Shown here: in pieces, positions 16,429 to 26,318 of the stretch | Layout of the letters: each line of letters begins with the position of its first letter | How positions within the stretch are numbered: position 1 is the first letter of the stretch | Assembly (NCBI GenBank): GCA_015523055.1 | Contig: WALD01000037.1 | Location: 1 to 31,318, forward strand | Length of the DNA stretch: 31,318 nucleotides | Direction: 5' to 3' | Source of the DNA: Candidatus Altiarchaeota archaeon | GTDB lineage: Archaea > Altiarchaeota > Altiarchaeia > IMC4 > QMZM01 | Position numbers and translations under genes: made by a program | The notes under the pieces: model-generated | Told to the model about the DNA's origin: nothing | The model's input: only the letters and a program-made list of their open reading frames with translations | Database searches by the model: none

Positions 16429-16617
16429 ATGGAATATACAAAATATGAGATCGCAAGGATACTTGGTGCAAGAGCACTGCAGATAAAAATGGGCGCCCCG
16501 ATTTTGATAAAGATTCCTAAAGGGGTGACAAGACCACAGGACATCGCCAGGTTGGAGTTTGAAAAGGACGCCCTACCATTAACGGTGAGAAGAAGAGAGG
16601 AACAAAATGGTGGATGA
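16429..16617 (+). CDS. rpoK: DNA-directed RNA polymerase subunit K (Rpo6)
   Basis: [22 protein letters not shown]...LPLTVRR. Confidence 0.95.
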
Positions 16618-17305
16618 TGATATAGGGGTAACAGAATCAGAGAGTGAGGATCTGCTTGTTCCGCTGGACGACTATCTTCTGAATGGAGTGCACATTGGTC
16701 TGAGGTATAAGGTTGCCGATATGAATGAATTCATCTACAAGGTAAGACCTGATAAGCTTTCTGTTTTTGACGTAAAGAAGATAGACGAAAGACTCATGAT
16801 TGCAGCGCGATTTATCTCCAGATATAAACCTGACGAGGTTCTTGTCGTATCCAACAGGATTTATGGCAGGAAACCAAGTATGGAATTTGCAAAGTATACC
16901 GGCTGCAATGCGGTGAATAAACGGTTCGTCTCCGGGACACTAACAAACCCGAATATAGGGGATTACATTGAACCAAAGCTCCTTCTTGTCACCGACCCTA
17001 GCTCAGACCAGCAGGCTATAAAGGAGGCAAGACTGATGGGAATACCTGTCGTGGCGATATGCGATACAAACACAAGGATCAAGAACATAGATCTTATAAT
17101 TCCCTCCAATAACAAAGGGAAGAATTCTTTGGCTTTGATATACTGGATTCTTGCAAGGGAGGTTTTGAGGAACAGAGGGGTTAAGAAATTTGATGTAGAG
17201 TTTGAGAAATTCATCTCTAAGGCCGAGCCTCAACCCCACATACTGAAGATGCATGAAATCCAGAGGAGACAGAATAGAAAGAAAAAAAAGGGGGGGAGGA
17301 AGTAA
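16607..17305 (+). CDS. rps2: 30S ribosomal protein uS2
   Basis: [60 protein letters not shown]. Confidence 0.95.
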
Positions 17306-17426
17306 ATTCATTGAATTTGAGGTGAATAAAGGTTTTGGGGATGGAGAATAAACCCTATTTGTAATTTTCATTTTTTAAGTTAAACTTCCCAATACCCTAA
17401 GATTATCGAAGAATCTGGAGGTTACA

Positions 17427-19376
17427 ATGCCAAAAAGCATCGTTCAGAAGATTCTGGAGGGGCACCTCGTAGATGGAGAATATGAACCCGACAAGGAGAT
17501 TGGTATACGGATAGACCAGACCCTTACACAGGATGCGACTGGAACAATGGCCTATCTGCAGTTTGAGGCAATGGGTATTCCCAGGACAAAGGCGGAATTA
17601 TCTGTCAGTTATGTTGATCATAATACAGTCCAGATTGGTTTTGAAAACGCTGATGACCATAGATACCTGCAGACCATAGCTGCGAAATATGGGATTGTTT
17701 ATTCCCGAGCTGGTAATGGAATCTGCCATCAGGTGCATCTTGAGAGGTTCGGTAAGCCGGGCAAGACCCTCTTAGGAAGTGATTCCCATACCCCGACAGG
17801 GGGAGGAATAGGTATGATTGCCATCGGATCTGGTGGCCTTGATGTCGCCGTTGCAATGGCTGGTGGACCCTTCTATTTAACCGTTCCGAAAGTTATACGA
17901 ATTAATCTTCATGGAAAGTTGAAGCCATGGGTCGCTGCAAAGGATGTCGTCCTGAAGATGCTTGATATCTTCACCACCAAGGGAAACGTCGGCTGCGTTT
18001 TTGAGTATGGAGGGGATGGGGTCAAGAGTCTTTCCGTCCCTGAAAGAGCAACTATAACCAATATGGGAGCCGAGTGTGGGGTCACAACCTCGATATTTCC
18101 AAGCGATGAAATAACTCGGAAGTTTCTGAGGTCCCAGGGAAGGGAAGGTGATTGGATGGAACTCAATGCTGATGAAGGAGCAGAATACTACAAGACAATC
18201 GACATCAATCTGGACGAGATAGAACCCCTTGCAGCAACGCCACATAGTCCAGGTAACATCGAGAAGATCAGCAATCTTAAGGATATAGAGGTTGATCAGG
18301 TGTGTATAGGGAGTTGCACCAATTCATCATATAAGGATCTGATGACTGTTGCCCACATATTGGATGGAAGGACGACCCACCCAAATGTCAGTTTCGTTGT
18401 TGCCCCGGGATCAAGGCAGGTGTTGGAGAACATTTCCCGGGAAGGGGCACTAAGTAAACTAATATCTGCGGGGGCAAGAATAGCCGAATCCGCCTGCGGT
18501 TTTTGTATAGGAAACAGTCAATCGCCGGGAACAGACGCAGTATCGCTCAGGACGAGCAACCGCAATTTTCTTGGCCGTTCTGGAACAAAGAGTGCAAACG
18601 TATACCTTGTAAGCCCTGAAACTGCTGCTGCTGCCGTTATCACTGGCAAAATAACAGATCCAAGAGGCCTCGAAAACATGGGTATTGAATATCCTGATAT
18701 CAAGATGCCAGAAAAATTTTACATCAATGATAATATGTTCATCTTTCCGGGGTATGTGAAGGGCAATGTGGAGATCTACAGGGGTCCAAACATCGGGGAG
18801 CCGCCACAAAGCGAGCCCCTTGCCGAGACAATAGACGGAAAGGTCACGATAAAGGTTGGAGATAAGATAACCACAGACCACATAATTCCCGCAGGATCCA
18901 AGATGAAGTACCGCTCCAATGTCCCCAAGTATTCGGAATTTCTGTTCGAGATCGTGGACCCTGAATTCTACAAGAGAGCCATCGAGATAAGGGATAGCGG
19001 AAAGCACAACATAATAGTCGCTGGACTGAGCTACGGTCAGGGCTCATCAAGAGAACACGCAGCTTTATGCCCGATGTTCGTGGGGGTAAAGGCAGTAATT
19101 GCAATGTCCATAGAGAGAATCCACAACGCCAACCTCATAAACTTTGGCATAGTGCCTTTGTTATTCAAGAATAAAAAGGACTATGAGGACATAGAGCAGG
19201 GTGACGAGTTAGAGATACCAGATATCAAAAAAATCATACAGGATGGCGGCTCATTAATAGTGAGGAACAAATCAAAGGGGACGGAGTTTGAGGTCGATTA
19301 CAACCTCTCGGACAGGGAGAAGCAAATCCTTCTCGCGGGAGGAACGCTCGCATACATGAAACAGCAGGGAGGATAA
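17427..19376 (+). CDS. acn: Aconitate hydratase (compact, Aquifex-type-like)
   Basis: TLTQDATG, DHN, GICHQV, GSDSHT, [4Fe-4S] ligands in GSCTNSS and ACGFCIG, NRNF, TTDHIIPAG, YGQGSSREHAA. RBS GGAGG upstream. Confidence 0.9.
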   Translation: MPKSIVQKILEGHLVDGEYEPDKEIGIRIDQTLTQDATGTMAYLQFEAMGIPRTKAELSVSYVDHNTVQIGFENADDHRYLQTIAAKYGIVYSRAGNGICHQVHLERFGKPGKTLLGSDSHTPTGGGIGMIAIGSGGLDVAVAMAGGPFYLTVPKVIRINLHGKLKPWVAAKDVVLKMLDIFTTKGNVGCVFEYGGDGVKSLSVPERATITNMGAECGVTTSIFPSDEITRKFLRSQGREGDWMELNADEGAEYYKTIDINLDEIEPLAATPHSPGNIEKISNLKDIEVDQVCIGSCTNSSYKDLMTVAHILDGRTTHPNVSFVVAPGSRQVLENISREGALSKLISAGARIAESACGFCIGNSQSPGTDAVSLRTSNRNFLGRSGTKSANVYLVSPETAAAAVITGKITDPRGLENMGIEYPDIKMPEKFYINDNMFIFPGYVKGNVEIYRGPNIGEPPQSEPLAETIDGKVTIKVGDKITTDHIIPAGSKMKYRSNVPKYSEFLFEIVDPEFYKRAIEIRDSGKHNIIVAGLSYGQGSSREHAALCPMFVGVKAVIAMSIERIHNANLINFGIVPLLFKNKKDYEDIEQGDELEIPDIKKIIQDGGSLIVRNKSKGTEFEVDYNLSDREKQILLAGGTLAYMKQQGG

Positions 19377-19378
19377 AA

Positions 19379-20653
19379 ATGGCACAGAGAGGCATAAGGG
19401 AATTTGATGGCAAGAAGATGCTTGCGAGATACTGGGGGGAGTATATCAGCAAGGATCTCTCCTTCCCTGGAAGGATTGTTCTGGTTGACCCGGAAACTAA
19501 ATTAGACGATTTACCCAATGAGTATTCCTGGCTTAAAAAAGAGAAACTGGTGGTCAAGCCCGATCAACTTTTTGGTAAGCGGGGCAAGCATGGCCTGATT
19601 GCGGCAAACGTAAGCTTTGAAGAGGCAAAGGAGTGGATTGCCGAGAGAATGAATAAGAAGACCACTATTGGAGGGGTGACCGGCACACTTACCCACTTTA
19701 TTATAGAGCCCTACATCCCACACGACAAAGAATTCTACATCGCTATCAAGAGTGTAAGAGAGGGCGACACGATATACTTCTCAAACCATGGGGGTGTTGA
19801 TATAGAATCCGTATGGGATACTGTTGCTGAGATTAATGTAGGGGTGATGGAAGACATCGATAAGATAAATATTGAAGACAAACTTCCAAAGGACACTCCC
19901 AATGAAAATAAAAGGGTGCTTGCCGACTTCATCAGGGGCCTGTTTAGGTTCTATCGGAACCTGGGCTATGCCTATCTGGAGATTAACCCCTTTGTAATCT
20001 CCGGTAAGGATATCGTCCCTCTGGATCTAGTAGCAAGGCTCGACGACACCGCCGTTTTTGAATTTGGTAGTAAATGGGGGGACATCAGATTCCCCGCCCC
20101 CTTTGGGAGGAATATATCTAAGGAGGAGGCCTACATAAAGAAGATGGATGCAAAGAGCGGCGCCTCCCTGAAACTAACGATTCTGAACCCCAAAGGTAGG
20201 ATCTGGACGATGGTCGCGGGCGGAGGAAGCAGCGTTATCTATGCAGATACCATAGTTGACCTAGGTTACAGTGATGAGCTTGCGAACTATGGGGAGTACA
20301 GCGGGAACCCATCAACTGACGAAACATATGAATATGCAAAGACAGTTATTGATTTAATGACAAGGGAGAGGGATATAAAAGGCCGCCCAAAGTTTCTGTT
20401 GATTGGAGGAGGGATTGCAAATTTCACCGATGTGGCAAAAACATTCAAAGGTATCATAATGGCGTTGCGAGAGTATAAGGAGAAACTGAAAAAAGTCGGT
20501 GTAAAGATTTACGTGCGGCGAGGGGGACCAAACTATCGGGAGGGATTGAAGAATATGAAGAAACTCGGTGAGGAGTTAGGGGTTCCAATTGAGGTTTATG
20601 GACCCGAGACCCATATGACCAGAATCGTTAATATGGCACTTGAGGGAAGTTAA
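19379..20653 (+). CDS. aclB: ATP-citrate lyase, small subunit (ATP-grasp plus citrate-binding)
   Basis: KPDQLFGKRGK, YLEINP, WTMVAGGGSSVIYAD, ANYGEYSG, IGGGIANFTDVAKTF, RRGGPNY. Confidence 0.92.
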   Translation: MAQRGIREFDGKKMLARYWGEYISKDLSFPGRIVLVDPETKLDDLPNEYSWLKKEKLVVKPDQLFGKRGKHGLIAANVSFEEAKEWIAERMNKKTTIGGVTGTLTHFIIEPYIPHDKEFYIAIKSVREGDTIYFSNHGGVDIESVWDTVAEINVGVMEDIDKINIEDKLPKDTPNENKRVLADFIRGLFRFYRNLGYAYLEINPFVISGKDIVPLDLVARLDDTAVFEFGSKWGDIRFPAPFGRNISKEEAYIKKMDAKSGASLKLTILNPKGRIWTMVAGGGSSVIYADTIVDLGYSDELANYGEYSGNPSTDETYEYAKTVIDLMTRERDIKGRPKFLLIGGGIANFTDVAKTFKGIIMALREYKEKLKKVGVKIYVRRGGPNYREGLKNMKKLGEELGVPIEVYGPETHMTRIVNMALEGS

Positions 20654-22531
20654 ATGGCAATAAAGGCGAAAAAGAAACCGGATTATGTCTTAATGGACAA
20701 AGATACCAAGGCAATTGTTTTTGGCTATCAACAGAATGCCGTCCAGCGGATGCTTGACTTTGACTACATATGCCGAAGAAAGGATCCCTCTGTCGTGGCT
20801 ATTGTCAATCCAACTCGCGACGGTCTTCATAAGTGTTTCTGGGGAACGAAGGAGATCCAAGTGCCCATGTATAAAACACTTGAACAGGCGACAAAAAAAC
20901 ATCCCGATGCCGATGTGATGGTAAATTTTGCATCAATGCGCTCTGCGTATCCAAGCACAAAGGAAGCATTGGAATCTGAAACAATCCGCACTGTTGCAAT
21001 CATTGCTGAAGGGGTTCCGGAGCACAGGACAAAGGAGCTGATTAAGATAGCCAAGGACAGGAACAAATGGATTATCGGCCCCGCAACAGTCGGTGGCATA
21101 GTTGCAGGGGGATTCAAAATAGGAAACACAGCAGGGATGCTGGACAACATCATTGCCTCAAAGCTCTATCGACCGGGGAGCGTAGCGTATGTTTCAAAAT
21201 CTGGCGGACTCTCTAATGAGTTGAATAACATCATTGCAAATAATACCGATGGGGTATACGAAGGAATTGCAATAGGTGGCGACCGTTATCCCGGCTCAAC
21301 ATTTCTTGACCATCTCTTGAGATATGAAAAGAACCCCAGGATTAAGATGATGGTCATGCTTGGCGAGGTTGGAGGAACTGATGAGTATGATGTGATAGAA
21401 GCGGTGAAGGAAGGGAAGATCAAGAAACCACTCGTTGCATGGTGCATTGGAACCTGTTCAAAGGTATTTCCGGCAGATATTCAGTTTGGTCACGCAGGGG
21501 CAAGAGCAGGGGCGGAGAAAGAGACTGCCGACGCAAAAAATAAGGCTCTGAAGGGGGTTGGAGTTATTGTTCCAGATACGTTTGATGACTTTGACAAGAG
21601 AATCAAGGAAACATTCGACATGCTTGTGAGATCAGGGAAGCACACACCACTGCCCGATGTAGAGCCACCTAAAATACCGATCGATTACGCTGTTGCCCTT
21701 AAAGAAGGAATCATCAGAAAGCCGACACAGTTTGTCAGCACGATATCTGATGACCGGGGAGAAGAGCTTCGATATTGTGGAATTCCCATTAGCAGGATTT
21801 TTGAGGAGGGATGGGGGCTTGGAGGTGTCATTGGCCTGTTATGGTTTAAGAAGAAGCTTCCAAAATGGGCGACTGAATTCATTGAGATGGTCGTTCTCGT
21901 TACAGCGGACCACGGTCCCGCTGTTTCAGGGGCACACAATGCGATTGTTGCTGCCAGAGCAGGAAAGGACCTTGTTTCCTCCCTTGCAAGCGGTCTGCTG
22001 ACAATTGGGCCAAGATTCGGAGGCGCCGTTCAGGGATCGGCAGACCATTTCACAACCTACCTGTACCAGGGCTCAGATCCCGCCTTCATGGTAAAGGACA
22101 TGAAAGATAAGAACATAAACATTCAGGGGATAGGGCACAGAATTAAATCAGTTACAAATCCTGATGTAAGGGTCGAGATATTGAAGAAATATGTAAAAAA
22201 GAATTTTCCCATAACAGAAACTCTGGACTATGCACTGGATGTTGAGAAGCTTACAACCGCAAAAAGGAACAATCTGATACTTAATGTTGATGGTTGTATA
22301 GGTGTTTCATTTTGCGACATGCTGAGGAGCATCGGCTACAGCAGAGAGGAGGTGCGTGAATTCGTAGATCTTGGCATCCTCAATGCATTGTTCGTGGTAG
22401 GGAGGAGCATCGGCTTCATAGGTCATATCATAGACCAGAAACGGCAGAAGGCAGGCCTGTACCGGCATCCATGGGATGATATATTATATGCGATGCCTGA
22501 TAAACCAGACGAGGTGAAAAGGGATGGATGA
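20654..22531 (+). CDS. aclA: ATP-citrate lyase, large subunit (CoA-binding, phospho-His, citryl-CoA lyase domains)
   Basis: [29 protein letters not shown] (phospho-His), [34 protein letters not shown]. Confidence 0.92.
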
Positions 22532-23723
22532 GTATATTGAAAAGGCAAAGGAACATTTTGGAAATATCCTTAAGGAACAGCTTGAAAGGGTTGAGAGGAT
22601 GAAGTCCGGGGATGACTGGATAGATTACAAATCACTGAAACCGATTATAATCGGTGTTGTAGGGGGTGATGGCATCGGTCCAATGATTTGTGAACATGCC
22701 CACAGGATTTTGGAGTTCCTGCTCAGGGATGAAGTGGAAAATGGAAAAATCGAATTCAGGGTGATAGAGGGTCTCACCATAGATAATCGCGCCAGAGTTA
22801 TGAAGTCCATACCAGACGACGTTCTTGAGGAGATAAAGAACTGCCATGTGATATTGAAAGGCCCTACCACCACCCCAAAGAAGGGGGATCCATGGCCCAA
22901 TATTGAGAGTGCCAACGTTTCTATGAGAAAACATCTTGACCTATTTGCAAACATCAGGCCAGTCAAGGTGCCAGAGAAGAACATAGACTGGATGTTCTTC
23001 AGGGAGAATACAGAGGGGGCATACGTCCTTGGAAGCCAGGGTGTAAACGTGACTGATGATCTTGCAGTGGACTTCAAGGTGATTACGACACAGGGTTCTG
23101 ATAGGATTATCCGTCTTGCATTCGACTACGCGAAGAAGAACAATATTAATAGGGTAACGGTAGTAACTAAGGCAAACGTTATAAAAACCACAGACGGAAA
23201 GTTCCTTCAGATTGCAGAGGATGTTGCGAAGGAATACCCAGGTATTGAGTGGGATGACTGGTTTATCGACATTATGACTGCAAAGCTGATAGACCCAGCG
23301 AGGGCGAGTCAGTTCAGGGTTGTTGTGATGCCGAATCTTTATGGTGACATTCTGACCGATGAGGCAGCCCAGCTGCAGGGTGGAGTTGGGACGGCAGGGG
23401 GAGCAAACATCGGGAAGAGGTATGCGATGTTTGAGGCAATTCACGGCTCTGCTCCACGAATGGTTGAGGAGGGCCGGGCACAGTACGCCGACCCATCCAG
23501 CATCATCAAGGCAGGTTCAATGCTTCTGAACCACATTGGCTACATCGAGCAATCCAGGAGACTGGACATGGCCCTTGAGATATGTGGCCAGTACGAGATG
23601 AAGTTCAGGGTGACCGGTCGCTCCGATGGTGCAACCGGAGAAGAATATGCCAGGTACATAATGGACACACTTCAGGACCCGGATCTGGAAAGTAAGTGGC
23701 AGAGCTATCAGGGGGAGAAGTAG
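22524..23723 (+). CDS. icd: Isocitrate dehydrogenase (isocitrate/isopropylmalate dehydrogenase family)
   Basis: [31 protein letters not shown] (S-x-N is typical of isocitrate specificity), [23 protein letters not shown]. Coupled to aclA. Confidence 0.8.
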
Positions 23724-23765
23724 ACCTCTCCCCTTTTGGATAGTGCTGGTTGCCTCCCCAAGACT

Positions 23766-24914
23766 CTAGTTGTACTCTGCATTAAGCTTTACATATCTGG
23801 GTGTAAGGTCGCAACCAAATGCAGTGGCACGGGCCTTGCCTGAATTGAGATCAACGAGAATTCTTATTTCCTTGCCCTTGAGAATCTTCTCCACCTTCTT
23901 TAAATCATTTACCTTACCCCGCTTCACAGCCACTGCTTTGCCTCTCTCTGATTGGAATTCTATATCTGTCTTTTCAAAATTCAGTTCCATGACTGAGCCA
24001 AGAGAAGACACAATTCTGCCCCAGTTTGGGTTCTCCCCATAAACGGCTGCCTTTACGAGATTTGATGATACGACTGCTTTAGCGCCCCTTCTCGCGGTTT
24101 CGTTATCAACAGCGCCAGAAACCTCCACCTCAATAAATTTTGTTGAAGACTCGCCGTCCTTTGCAAGCATCTTCGCCAGAACCATTGTGGCATAATCCAA
24201 CACTACTTCAAAATCCTCTGCTTTGCAGTCAAAACTCTCATTGCTGAGCAACAGAACAGTATCGTTGGTGCTCATGTCTCCATCAATGGAAAGCATGTTA
24301 AAACTATTCTCAATACTCTTTGCAAGAGCATCCTGCAGTTCTTCTCTGCCAAGATTGGCGTTTGTTGTGAGAAAGCAAAGCATCGTTGCCATATTCGGAG
24401 CAATCATTCCTGCACCCTTTGCTATTCCACCTATTTTTATACCCTTGAATTCAAGAGATATTTCCTTTGGGAGGGTATCGGTGGTCATGATTGCCTCTGC
24501 TGCAAGATGGCTTCCCGCCTCTGAGAGATTCTTACCTGCCTCCCTGATTAGTTTTCCGATAACCTCAATATCCAGTTCCTTTCCGATAATCCCTGTAGAG
24601 GCAACAGCAACATTATCCGGGTCCATACCCAATTCCTCTGCTGCTATCTCGCACATTTTTTCGGCGTCATTCAGAGCATTTTTAGTGCAGCAGTTGGCGT
24701 TTCCAGAATTCACTATGATTGCCTGAATTCCACTTTCCAATTTCTTTCTATCCAGTAAGATATGGGCAGCTTTGACATTATTTCTGGTAAATACCCCCAC
24801 ACTTTTACATAGATCGTCGTTTACGATAAGGGCAACCCCCTGATTACCTATCTTCAAACCAGAAGCCTTAAAGTTATCTATGCATATCCCATCCTTGTTT
24901 TTTTTTATATCCAC
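23766..24914 (-). CDS. argJ: Ornithine acetyltransferase / bifunctional ArgJ
   Basis: NSGNAN, VASTGIIG, IMTTDT, AKGAGMIAPNMATML (autocleavage Thr), DGDMSTND, NPNWGRI. Confidence 0.93.
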   Translation of the reverse strand: MDIKKNKDGICIDNFKASGLKIGNQGVALIVNDDLCKSVGVFTRNNVKAAHILLDRKKLESGIQAIIVNSGNANCCTKNALNDAEKMCEIAAEELGMDPDNVAVASTGIIGKELDIEVIGKLIREAGKNLSEAGSHLAAEAIMTTDTLPKEISLEFKGIKIGGIAKGAGMIAPNMATMLCFLTTNANLGREELQDALAKSIENSFNMLSIDGDMSTNDTVLLLSNESFDCKAEDFEVVLDYATMVLAKMLAKDGESSTKFIEVEVSGAVDNETARRGAKAVVSSNLVKAAVYGENPNWGRIVSSLGSVMELNFEKTDIEFQSERGKAVAVKRGKVNDLKKVEKILKGKEIRILVDLNSGKARATAFGCDLTPRYVKLNAEYN

Positions 24915-24953: not shown

Positions 24954-26318
24954 ATGAAGCCCCGTCATGAGTGTGCGGTCTTTGGTATAAAAGCAGATTC
25001 TGCAGTTTTTGATAAGATATATCTTGGTCTTTATTCCATGCAGCACCGTGGTCAGGAATCTGCAGGGATTGCAACCCGGGATGACAGGATCAAACTACAT
25101 AGAGATATGGGCCTCGTTTCCGAGGTCTTCAAAAACGTTTATCTTGAAGGAAACTCGGGGATTGGTCATGTCAGGTATTCAACAACCGGTGAGTCAGGAA
25201 TAGAGAACGCCCAACCCTTGCTAATAAACTATGCAAGGGGAAGTTTTGCTATCGCCCACAATGGAAATCTGATAAATTCCAGGGAGTTGAGAGATGAATT
25301 AGAGAAGAAGGGCAGCGTTTTTACTACGACTACAGATACCGAGATCATAGCTCAGCTTATAGTGCAGGAGCATCTAAAGAGCGAAGGGTTTATGGAAGGG
25401 TTGAGGAAGGCGATAAAGCAGCTTAGAGGTGCATACTGTCTCGTCATCCTAAAGGACGAGGAGATTATAGCCATAAGGGATCCATGGGCGATTCATCCTC
25501 TGGTTCTCGGGAAGTCAAGGGATAGCTATGTCGTAGCTTCAGAGAGCTGCGCTCTTGACACGATTGGTATACCTGTCCTGAGGGATATAAGACCAGGAGA
25601 GATTCTCGTCATAGGGAATGAAGTGAAATCATACTCTATTGGTAAGGAGAGTATATCCCATTGTGTATTTGAGTATGTATATTTTGCAAGGGCTGACTCT
25701 CTCCTGAATGGAATTAATGTTTATGATGTCAGAAAGAATCTTGGCAGAATACTATACAGAGAGGCGCCTGTAGATGCAGACATCATCACTGCGGTTCCTG
25801 ATTCTGGCATTACAACTGCAATCGGTTATGCTGAGGAGTCAAAAATTCCCTATGGAGAGAGCCTGATGAAGAACCGTTATCTGGGGAGGACATTTATAAT
25901 GCCAGAGCAGAAGGAGAGAGAGCAGGGAGTTAAGCTAAAGCTCAATCCGATAAAGAGCGAGATAAAGGGTAAGAAGATAATTCTTGTAGATGATTCAATA
26001 GTCAGGGGAACGACGATAAGAAATCTGATAAATCTCCTGAGGAGGGCAGGGGCAAAGGAGGTTCATGTGAGGATATCCTGTCCTCCAGTGAAGCACCCGT
26101 GTTTCTATGGAATTGACATGCAAAGAGAGGATGAATTTATAGCGGCTCGAAAATCAGTTAAGGAGATATGTGAGGAGATTGGCGCTGATTCCCTTGCTTA
26201 TACGAGTCTTGAGGGCTTAATAAAAGCGATTGGAATTCCCAAAAAGAATTTATGCCTCGCATGCCTTAACGGAGAATATCCAATAAAGGAGGAGCAAACG
26301 AAACTGAAGGTTGGATAA
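24954..26318 (+). CDS. purF: Amidophosphoribosyltransferase
   Basis: Propeptide then Cys (RHE|C), QHRGQESAG, GHVRYST, HNGNL, PRPP motif VDDSIVRGTT, CFYGID, CLAC. Confidence 0.95.
   Translation: MKPRHECAVFGIKADSAVFDKIYLGLYSMQHRGQESAGIATRDDRIKLHRDMGLVSEVFKNVYLEGNSGIGHVRYSTTGESGIENAQPLLINYARGSFAIAHNGNLINSRELRDELEKKGSVFTTTTDTEIIAQLIVQEHLKSEGFMEGLRKAIKQLRGAYCLVILKDEEIIAIRDPWAIHPLVLGKSRDSYVVASESCALDTIGIPVLRDIRPGEILVIGNEVKSYSIGKESISHCVFEYVYFARADSLLNGINVYDVRKNLGRILYREAPVDADIITAVPDSGITTAIGYAEESKIPYGESLMKNRYLGRTFIMPEQKEREQGVKLKLNPIKSEIKGKKIILVDDSIVRGTTIRNLINLLRRAGAKEVHVRISCPPVKHPCFYGIDMQREDEFIAARKSVKEICEEIGADSLAYTSLEGLIKAIGIPKKNLCLACLNGEYPIKEEQTKLKVG

Follow-up and report, generated by a model that had tools for sequence, protein, structure and literature searches.

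At the locus described here, four co-oriented open reading frames (ORFs) on the + strand make up an operon of citrate metabolism in a Candidatus Altiarchaeota archaeon (assembly GCA_015523055.1, contig WALD01000037.1, whose positions 1 to 31,318, i.e., all 31,318 nucleotides (nt) analyzed, are referred to as the window). The first ORF, acn (17427-19376), encodes a 649-aa single-chain aconitate hydratase of the fused large-plus-small PRK07229/TIGR01342 type, and is followed by aclB (19379-20653; 424 aa), encoding the beta subunit of ATP-citrate lyase (ACL) with its ATP-grasp and citrate-binding domains, by aclA (20654-22531; 625 aa), encoding the ACL alpha subunit with its CoA-binding domain, phospho-histidine loop and citryl-CoA lyase module, and by icd (22524-23723; 399 aa), encoding an isocitrate dehydrogenase (ICDH) of the homodimeric, Iso_dh type. 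The first-pass annotation, made from the letters of the window, had described four tightly coupled genes with complete catalytic motifs, and so they are, the genes being spaced by 2 nt and 0 nt and then overlapping by 8 nt, with all the residues checked in place; equally borne out was its observation that no citrate synthase, 2-oxoglutarate:ferredoxin oxidoreductase (KOR; kor) or fumarate reductase (FRD; frd) gene lies within the window, and that argJ and purF follow the operon.

The acn product matches the NCBIfam aconitate hydratase model NF005558 with 943 bits (cut-off 612) and retains all three Fe-S cysteines (IGSCTN at 294, CGFC at 357). In Pfam terms, AclB comprises Citrate_bind (298 bits) and Citrate_synth_N (280 bits), and AclA comprises CoA_binding, Ligase_CoA and the C-terminal part of Citrate_synt, the latter protein also aligning end to end (853 bits) with the Methanothrix ACL alpha subunit (PDB 6HXI_B). 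The AclA motifs are the phospho-histidine loop GHAGA at 279, DHGP at 419, GHRIK at 494 and NVDG at 544, and the catalytic Asp of the lyase module is kept in LNVDGCIG (the aligned position is Asp in 6HXI_B and Ala in 6ZNW_B), so that by its domains, GHAGA loop and lyase Asp the predicted aclB/aclA product is a heteromeric ATP-citrate lyase (EC 2.3.3.8). The icd product (Iso_dh, 222 bits), whose best PDB matches are NAD-dependent isocitrate dehydrogenases (IDHs; 6LKY, 200 bits), carries the Ser-x-Asn isocitrate motif SANVSMR at 129, NIRP at 143 and NLYGDILTD at 271, and has both the Arg triad and the Asp residues that bind the metal; in place of the Asp-Ile of NAD-specific enzymes stands HGSAPRM, with an Arg replacing their Asp, and the use of NADP is predicted for this reason. 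By sequence, it represents a divergent ICDH subtype that is common to Thermoplasmatota, and its N-terminal extension of about 42 aa (22524-22650 of the window), absent from the solved IDHs, appears to be conserved in the Thermoplasmatota homologues, as tblastn matches of about 390 aa suggest. That acn and icd might instead encode enzymes of the leucine pathway was considered and rejected, since separate LeuC-like (C35) and LeuB-like (C72) genes are found in the genome, and icd has the Ser-x-Asn motif.

The rest of the host genome (0.97 Mb in 109 contigs, rated 85% complete, with the window as contig C37) was searched for the genes that would surround these three activities in a cycle. Genome-wide, no stand-alone citrate synthase was found, the only citrate synthase domain being the one in AclA, nor was there a Re-type candidate: the only two HMGL-like proteins both carry LeuA_dimer and score above the cut-off as isopropylmalate synthases, which likewise leaves the genome with no detected pyruvate carboxylase/oxaloacetate decarboxylase (PycB/OadA). 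A single 2-oxoacid:ferredoxin oxidoreductase (OFOR) is encoded, and it is the four-subunit pyruvate synthase PorGDAB (PorA, PorB and PorG above their NCBIfam cut-offs), so that neither KOR nor any second OFOR was detected genome-wide; the same holds for SdhA/FrdA (the matches were short N-terminal FAD-folds only), succinyl-CoA synthetase (SCS; the sole Ligase_CoA match is AclA), malate dehydrogenase (MDH) of either type (no Ldh_1_C or Ldh_2 match), phosphoenolpyruvate (PEP) carboxylase (PEPC) of either type, and malic enzyme. What the genome does encode is a class I fumarase alpha subunit, a full-length GTP-dependent PEP carboxykinase (PEPCK) and a glutamate dehydrogenase (GDH). The operon is thus the sole link found in this genome between the C4 (oxaloacetate/aspartate) and C5 (2-oxoglutarate/glutamate) compounds. 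The suggestion of the first-pass annotation that acl need not stand for the reductive tricarboxylic acid (rTCA) cycle here is upheld by these searches, a complete rTCA gene set being absent genome-wide, as is its expectation that no separate citrate synthase would serve an oxidative branch; of two other parts of the background it had named, fumarase is present through its alpha subunit, and the CODH/ACS cluster of the Wood-Ljungdahl pathway was not found in this assembly though CdhC is present in both congeners.

The operon does not appear to be native to this lineage. AclA is 91% identical to that of a congener and 77-86% identical to the AclA of about 45 metagenome-assembled genomes (MAGs) labelled Thermoplasmata, Thermoplasmatales or Thermoplasmatota, and the identities to the Thermoplasmatota homologues are similarly high for acn (74-80%), aclB (69-80%) and icd (79-85%), the closest relatives being Guaymas Thermoplasmata MAGs; ribosomal protein S2, in contrast, shows no more than 82-83% identity between members of the genus, and 64-73% at the level of the family. 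In the maximum-likelihood tree, the host and the ACL-bearing congener form a pair with 100% support, which is nested in a starred group that has 26 Thermoplasmatota among its 29 rows, itself inside a fully supported 41-row clade. The Acl phylogeny, which had been named as the way to a transfer origin, thus places the host sequence among Thermoplasmatota, and this nesting, together with the high identity to the Thermoplasmatota operons, indicates horizontal transfer; the sequences point to an acquisition from Thermoplasmatota within a phylum otherwise nearly devoid of citrate metabolism, which the first-pass annotation had not recognized. A single origin of all Altiarchaeota ACLs is disfavored, as forcing the three sequences together costs 71 log-likelihood units with p = 0.02 in the approximately unbiased (AU) test, a value to be read in the knowledge that the group was defined once the tree was known. 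The host itself, a sediment archaeon, is most likely an altiarchaeote and not a member of Thermoplasmatota, and mis-binning or a chimeric assembly was rejected as an explanation, because S2, S9 and L13 of the same contig are 76-87% identical to those of the two congeners, and both operon junctions recur in two other assemblies. Base composition was uninformative as a sign of foreign origin (GC of 0.46-0.47 in the operon vs. 0.43-0.46 in the flanks).

The operon is located at a break in synteny. Downstream of S2, both congeners have enolase and further blocks instead of argJ, and these blocks are found on other contigs in the host, where the S2-enolase adjacency is broken: rps2 (16607-17305 of the window) abuts the operon, and enolase lies at G000:C54 (L108:3456-4721). 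An empty insertion site was sought in both congeners, and the synteny break was seen, with no clean insertion scar. In the ACL-bearing congener, the operon stands in a different neighborhood and ends in a monomeric IDH gene.

How unusual the operon is for its host becomes apparent from searches covering 61 genomes of the phylum, the two congeners included. ACL was found in four of these (the host, a congener and two members of a second genus), a true citrate synthase in one, and SCS in three, neither congener being among them, so that about 55 of the 61 have neither citrate synthase nor ACL nor SCS; CdhC of CODH/ACS was found in 18, both congeners included. Altiarchaeales have been described as Wood-Ljungdahl autotrophs with scant sign of heterotrophic catabolism (PMC4975002). 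The second Altiarchaeota genus (L099, G004:C156:4000-13639; G004:C165, G005:C35) has the gene order acn-icd-aclB-aclA, as does the Micrarchaeota locus L058, and also carries sucCD; its AclA is 64-65% identical to that of the window and groups with a Micrarchaeota sequence in another part of the tree, which looks like an independent gain, and possibly one of a fuller TCA gene set.

Outside of the phylum, the statement of the first-pass annotation that ACL is uncommon in archaea and reported from Methanosaeta/Methanothrix has to be called outdated, as the same operon is present in dozens of Thermoplasmatota MAGs and also in Bathyarchaeia, Micrarchaeota and Methanosarcinales. Across the related loci, acn-aclB-aclA is kept nearly everywhere, and what lies directly 3' of aclA belongs to any of three ICDH types unrelated to each other (the approximately 400-aa type of the window, a second Iso_dh type of about 405 aa, or a monomeric IDH of about 750 aa), the last of these, and not the 400-aa type, ending most of the Thermoplasmatota operons. 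Because one ICDH type has been replaced by another in this manner, it can be argued that selection acts on the three-step unit. Among the five closed Thermoplasmatota chromosomes carrying the operon, none has FrdA/SdhA (Succ_DH_flav_C domain), and a full citrate synthase is missing from four. One closed operon-bearing chromosome also encodes a 260-aa protein (G064:C1:988620-989324) matching the C-terminal half of citrate synthase only, a candidate stand-alone citryl-CoA lyase judging from that match.

Several further peculiarities of these loci deserve to be put on record. Several Thermoplasmatota operons have, upstream, genes for an Lrp/AsnC-like regulator and for an AMP-forming acetyl-CoA synthetase. 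A gene for a 467-aa RRXRR-domain protein (PF14239; L037:1939-3342) is inserted between aclA and the monomeric IDH gene of one Thermoplasmatota MAG, the domain being one that occurs in IscB-type mobile-element nucleases. The closed Thermoplasmatales chromosome CP070724.1 has two copies of the operon (L020 and L025), in one of which the ORF for the monomeric IDH reaches only 493 aa (profile positions 1-485 of 734) and may be truncated/frameshifted. Operons L040, L041, L079, L057 and L047, on contigs labelled Anaerolineae, Chloroflexota, Heimdallarchaeota, WOR-3 and Syntrophomonadaceae, fall inside or beside Thermoplasmatota clades, and represent either further transfers or mis-binned/mislabelled MAG contigs.

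As for the immediate surroundings of the operon in the window, the 121-nt spacer between rps2 and acn (17306-17426, + strand) contains an AT-rich stretch, TTTTTTAAGTTAAAC, which may be an archaeal TATA region, and 6 nt upstream of the acn ATG the ribosome-binding site GGAGGT can be read; the spacer is probably the promoter of the operon itself, going by these features (the promoter scan used a bacterial-type model, and is not meaningful for an archaeal host). Downstream, argJ (23766-24914, - strand) is convergent with icd and is itself followed by purF (24954-26318, + strand). Overlapping the icd stop codon and reaching into the convergent gap before argJ is a hairpin, GGGGGAGA...TCTCCC, followed by a T-run (23711-23737, + strand), a possible transcript end that is the first listed of the terminator-like sites of the region, whose number is not above that in shuffled controls. 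The genes follow one another in the same order, across both the rps2-acn and the icd-argJ junction, in two more assemblies (an ENA contig of 49 kb and a contig from Logan).

Taken together, we favor, with a probability of roughly 0.55, reading the operon as a self-contained, horizontally acquired citrate-node module that is run in the citrate-forming, anabolic direction and is not part of an rTCA cycle. Pyruvate synthase and the gluconeogenic steps would yield PEP, which GTP-PEPCK would carboxylate to oxaloacetate; ACL would then combine the latter with acetyl-CoA in the citrate-forming, ATP-conserving direction, aconitase and ICDH would convert the citrate to 2-oxoglutarate (and CO2), and GDH and the ArgJ pathway would consume it. 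By gene content, and provided that PEPCK acts as a carboxylase, this predicted branch from PEP via oxaloacetate, citrate and 2-oxoglutarate to glutamate is complete, and it is in this respect that the self-contained ACL branch to 2-oxoglutarate proposed by the first-pass annotation stands, its direction being the part that sequence does not settle. The citrate-forming direction is favored because the host lineage has a Wood-Ljungdahl autotrophic background, because PEPCK is the only oxaloacetate-forming enzyme found, because GDH and arginine biosynthesis provide sinks, because no other citrate-forming enzyme was found, and because ATP would be recovered where thioester energy would otherwise be lost. 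Whether a single transfer from benthic Thermoplasmatota gave this Altiarchaeota genus its only C4-C5 route, with ACL serving there as an ATP-conserving citrate synthase, is a more tentative matter, which we would put somewhat short of even odds.

Several points weigh against this reading. No sequence feature fixes the direction of flux, and ACL works near equilibrium; archaeal PEPCK is usually gluconeogenic, which would fit the opposite flux. The ICDH falls under every NCBIfam equivalog cut-off, the best being NF006673 with 262 bits against 509. The absences listed above are probabilistic, given a genome that is 85% complete and spread over 109 contigs, and with no CODH/ACS cluster found in this assembly, though present in both congeners, the source of acetyl-CoA is less clear.

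The most serious competitor is the same set of reactions run reductively, with imported glutamate converted by GDH to 2-oxoglutarate, and the latter by ICDH carboxylation, aconitase and ACL to oxaloacetate and acetyl-CoA, from which aspartate synthesis, PEPCK-driven gluconeogenesis and the formation of acetate/ATP would be supplied. The enzymes at both ends, GDH and GTP-PEPCK, are encoded, and no PEPC, pyruvate carboxylase, MDH or malic enzyme was detected in the genome; the Arg taking the place of the NAD-specific Asp in ICDH would suit an NADPH-driven carboxylation, at least one ACL-bearing class of Thermoplasmatota has been described as a peptide fermenter (PMC12220078), and, as most genomes of the phylum are without every known route to 2-oxoglutarate, an ancestor may already have relied on imported glutamate. 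Such a course would, however, cost both ATP and GTP and sit poorly with the autotrophy and little heterotrophic catabolism described for Altiarchaeales (PMC4975002); moreover, the congener that lacks ACL has a PEPCK too, which gives this enzyme a role apart from the operon, and the adjoining argJ, a gene of arginine biosynthesis, points to anabolic consumption of glutamate. We therefore regard reductive operation as unlikely, yet as the alternative to be taken most seriously. Somewhat less probable still is a bidirectional shunt, dedicated to neither direction, the net flux of which would be set by the supply of aspartate/C4 vs. glutamate/C5: ACL, aconitase and NADP-dependent ICDH are all reversible (PMC12137691), nothing else found in the genome connects C4 with C5 compounds, and the operon persists in hosts of very different lifestyles, but sequence offers little to distinguish this from either directional reading.

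A complete ACL-type rTCA cycle, the remaining genes of which would have to reside in the unassembled 15% of the genome, strikes us as very improbable. It could draw on the incompleteness of the assembly, on the class I fumarase alpha subunit and pyruvate synthase that are present, and on Garritano et al. 2022, who inferred the rTCA cycle for two Thermoplasmatota MAGs; it would, nevertheless, require at least four separate functions (KOR, FRD, SCS and MDH) to be all missing by chance, when SCS is found in neither congener and none of the five closed operon-carrying chromosomes has the FrdA/SdhA domain, and the CODH/ACS of the congeners would make a second fixation pathway redundant.

If the operon did reach this Altiarchaeota genus by one transfer and ACL serves there as a citrate synthase, glutamate prototrophy would have been gained by horizontal gene transfer, and acl would be a poor rTCA marker across uncultured archaea. 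Metagenomic surveys take acl as a diagnostic rTCA gene, and scoring it as carbon fixation would be an error in these lineages: in the host and in the five closed Thermoplasmatota chromosomes, acl belongs to a portable operon unaccompanied by a detected fumarate reductase. The operon would also be a case of central carbon metabolism having moved between archaeal phyla as one unit, and into a lineage of reduced genomes at that.

Set against known systems, the operon shares ACL, aconitase, ICDH and pyruvate synthase with the ACL-type rTCA cycles of Chlorobium, Nitrospira and Campylobacterota, from which the host differs in having no detected KOR, fumarate reductase, SCS or MDH. With the ACL of Methanothrix soehngenii (Methanosaeta concilii; PDB 6HXI/6ZNW) it has in common the two-subunit AclB/AclA architecture, the 853-bit full-length alignment, and the conserved phospho-His loop and lyase-module Asp, and at the Methanosarcinales locus L062, acn-aclB-aclA likewise occur together, an Iso_dh gene lying some 1 kb farther downstream; the window AclA is, however, only about 59% identical to that of Methanosarcinales, its operon belongs to the Thermoplasmatota clade of the tree, and the host is of another phylum. 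ACL and a "partial rTCA" have been reported for Thermoplasmatota (PMC12220078, PMC9802188), including Ca. Penumbrarchaeia/EX4484-6 (PMC12220078), and the acn-aclB-aclA-ICDH operons of benthic members of that phylum are the closest match, with the same gene order and 69-86% protein identity over the four genes, whereas the genome of the window lies outside that phylum, and most of theirs end in a monomeric IDH.

The idea of ACL working in the oxidative, ATP-forming direction is already published. In Desulfobacter postgatei, ACL is the citrate-forming, ATP-yielding enzyme (Möller 1987, as cited in PMC12137691, where full reversibility of ACL is also stated); going by that citing account, the likeness lies in ACL replacing citrate synthase and conserving the thioester energy as ATP, and the difference in Desulfobacter having a complete bacterial oxidative cycle for acetate catabolism where the window would have a three-step anabolic branch. 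For the anaerobic methanotrophic archaea (ANME) ANME-1 and ANME-2c, Chadwick et al. 2022 proposed a partial oxidative TCA in which ACL would work in the ATP-producing direction (PMC9012536), i.e., the same three activities leading to 2-oxoglutarate, on a Wood-Ljungdahl background and with no complete TCA cycle, and the autotrophy of Altiarchaeales (PMC4975002) matches the anabolic use proposed there (PMC9012536). The ACL direction is a predicted one in both cases, and the window differs in its lineage and in that its operon appears to be a recent foreign acquisition in a phylum otherwise without both TCA branches. New here, then, are the Altiarchaeota host, the transfer between phyla, the almost complete lack of TCA enzymes elsewhere in the recipient phylum, and the swapping of ICDH types behind an otherwise conserved acn-aclB-aclA core.

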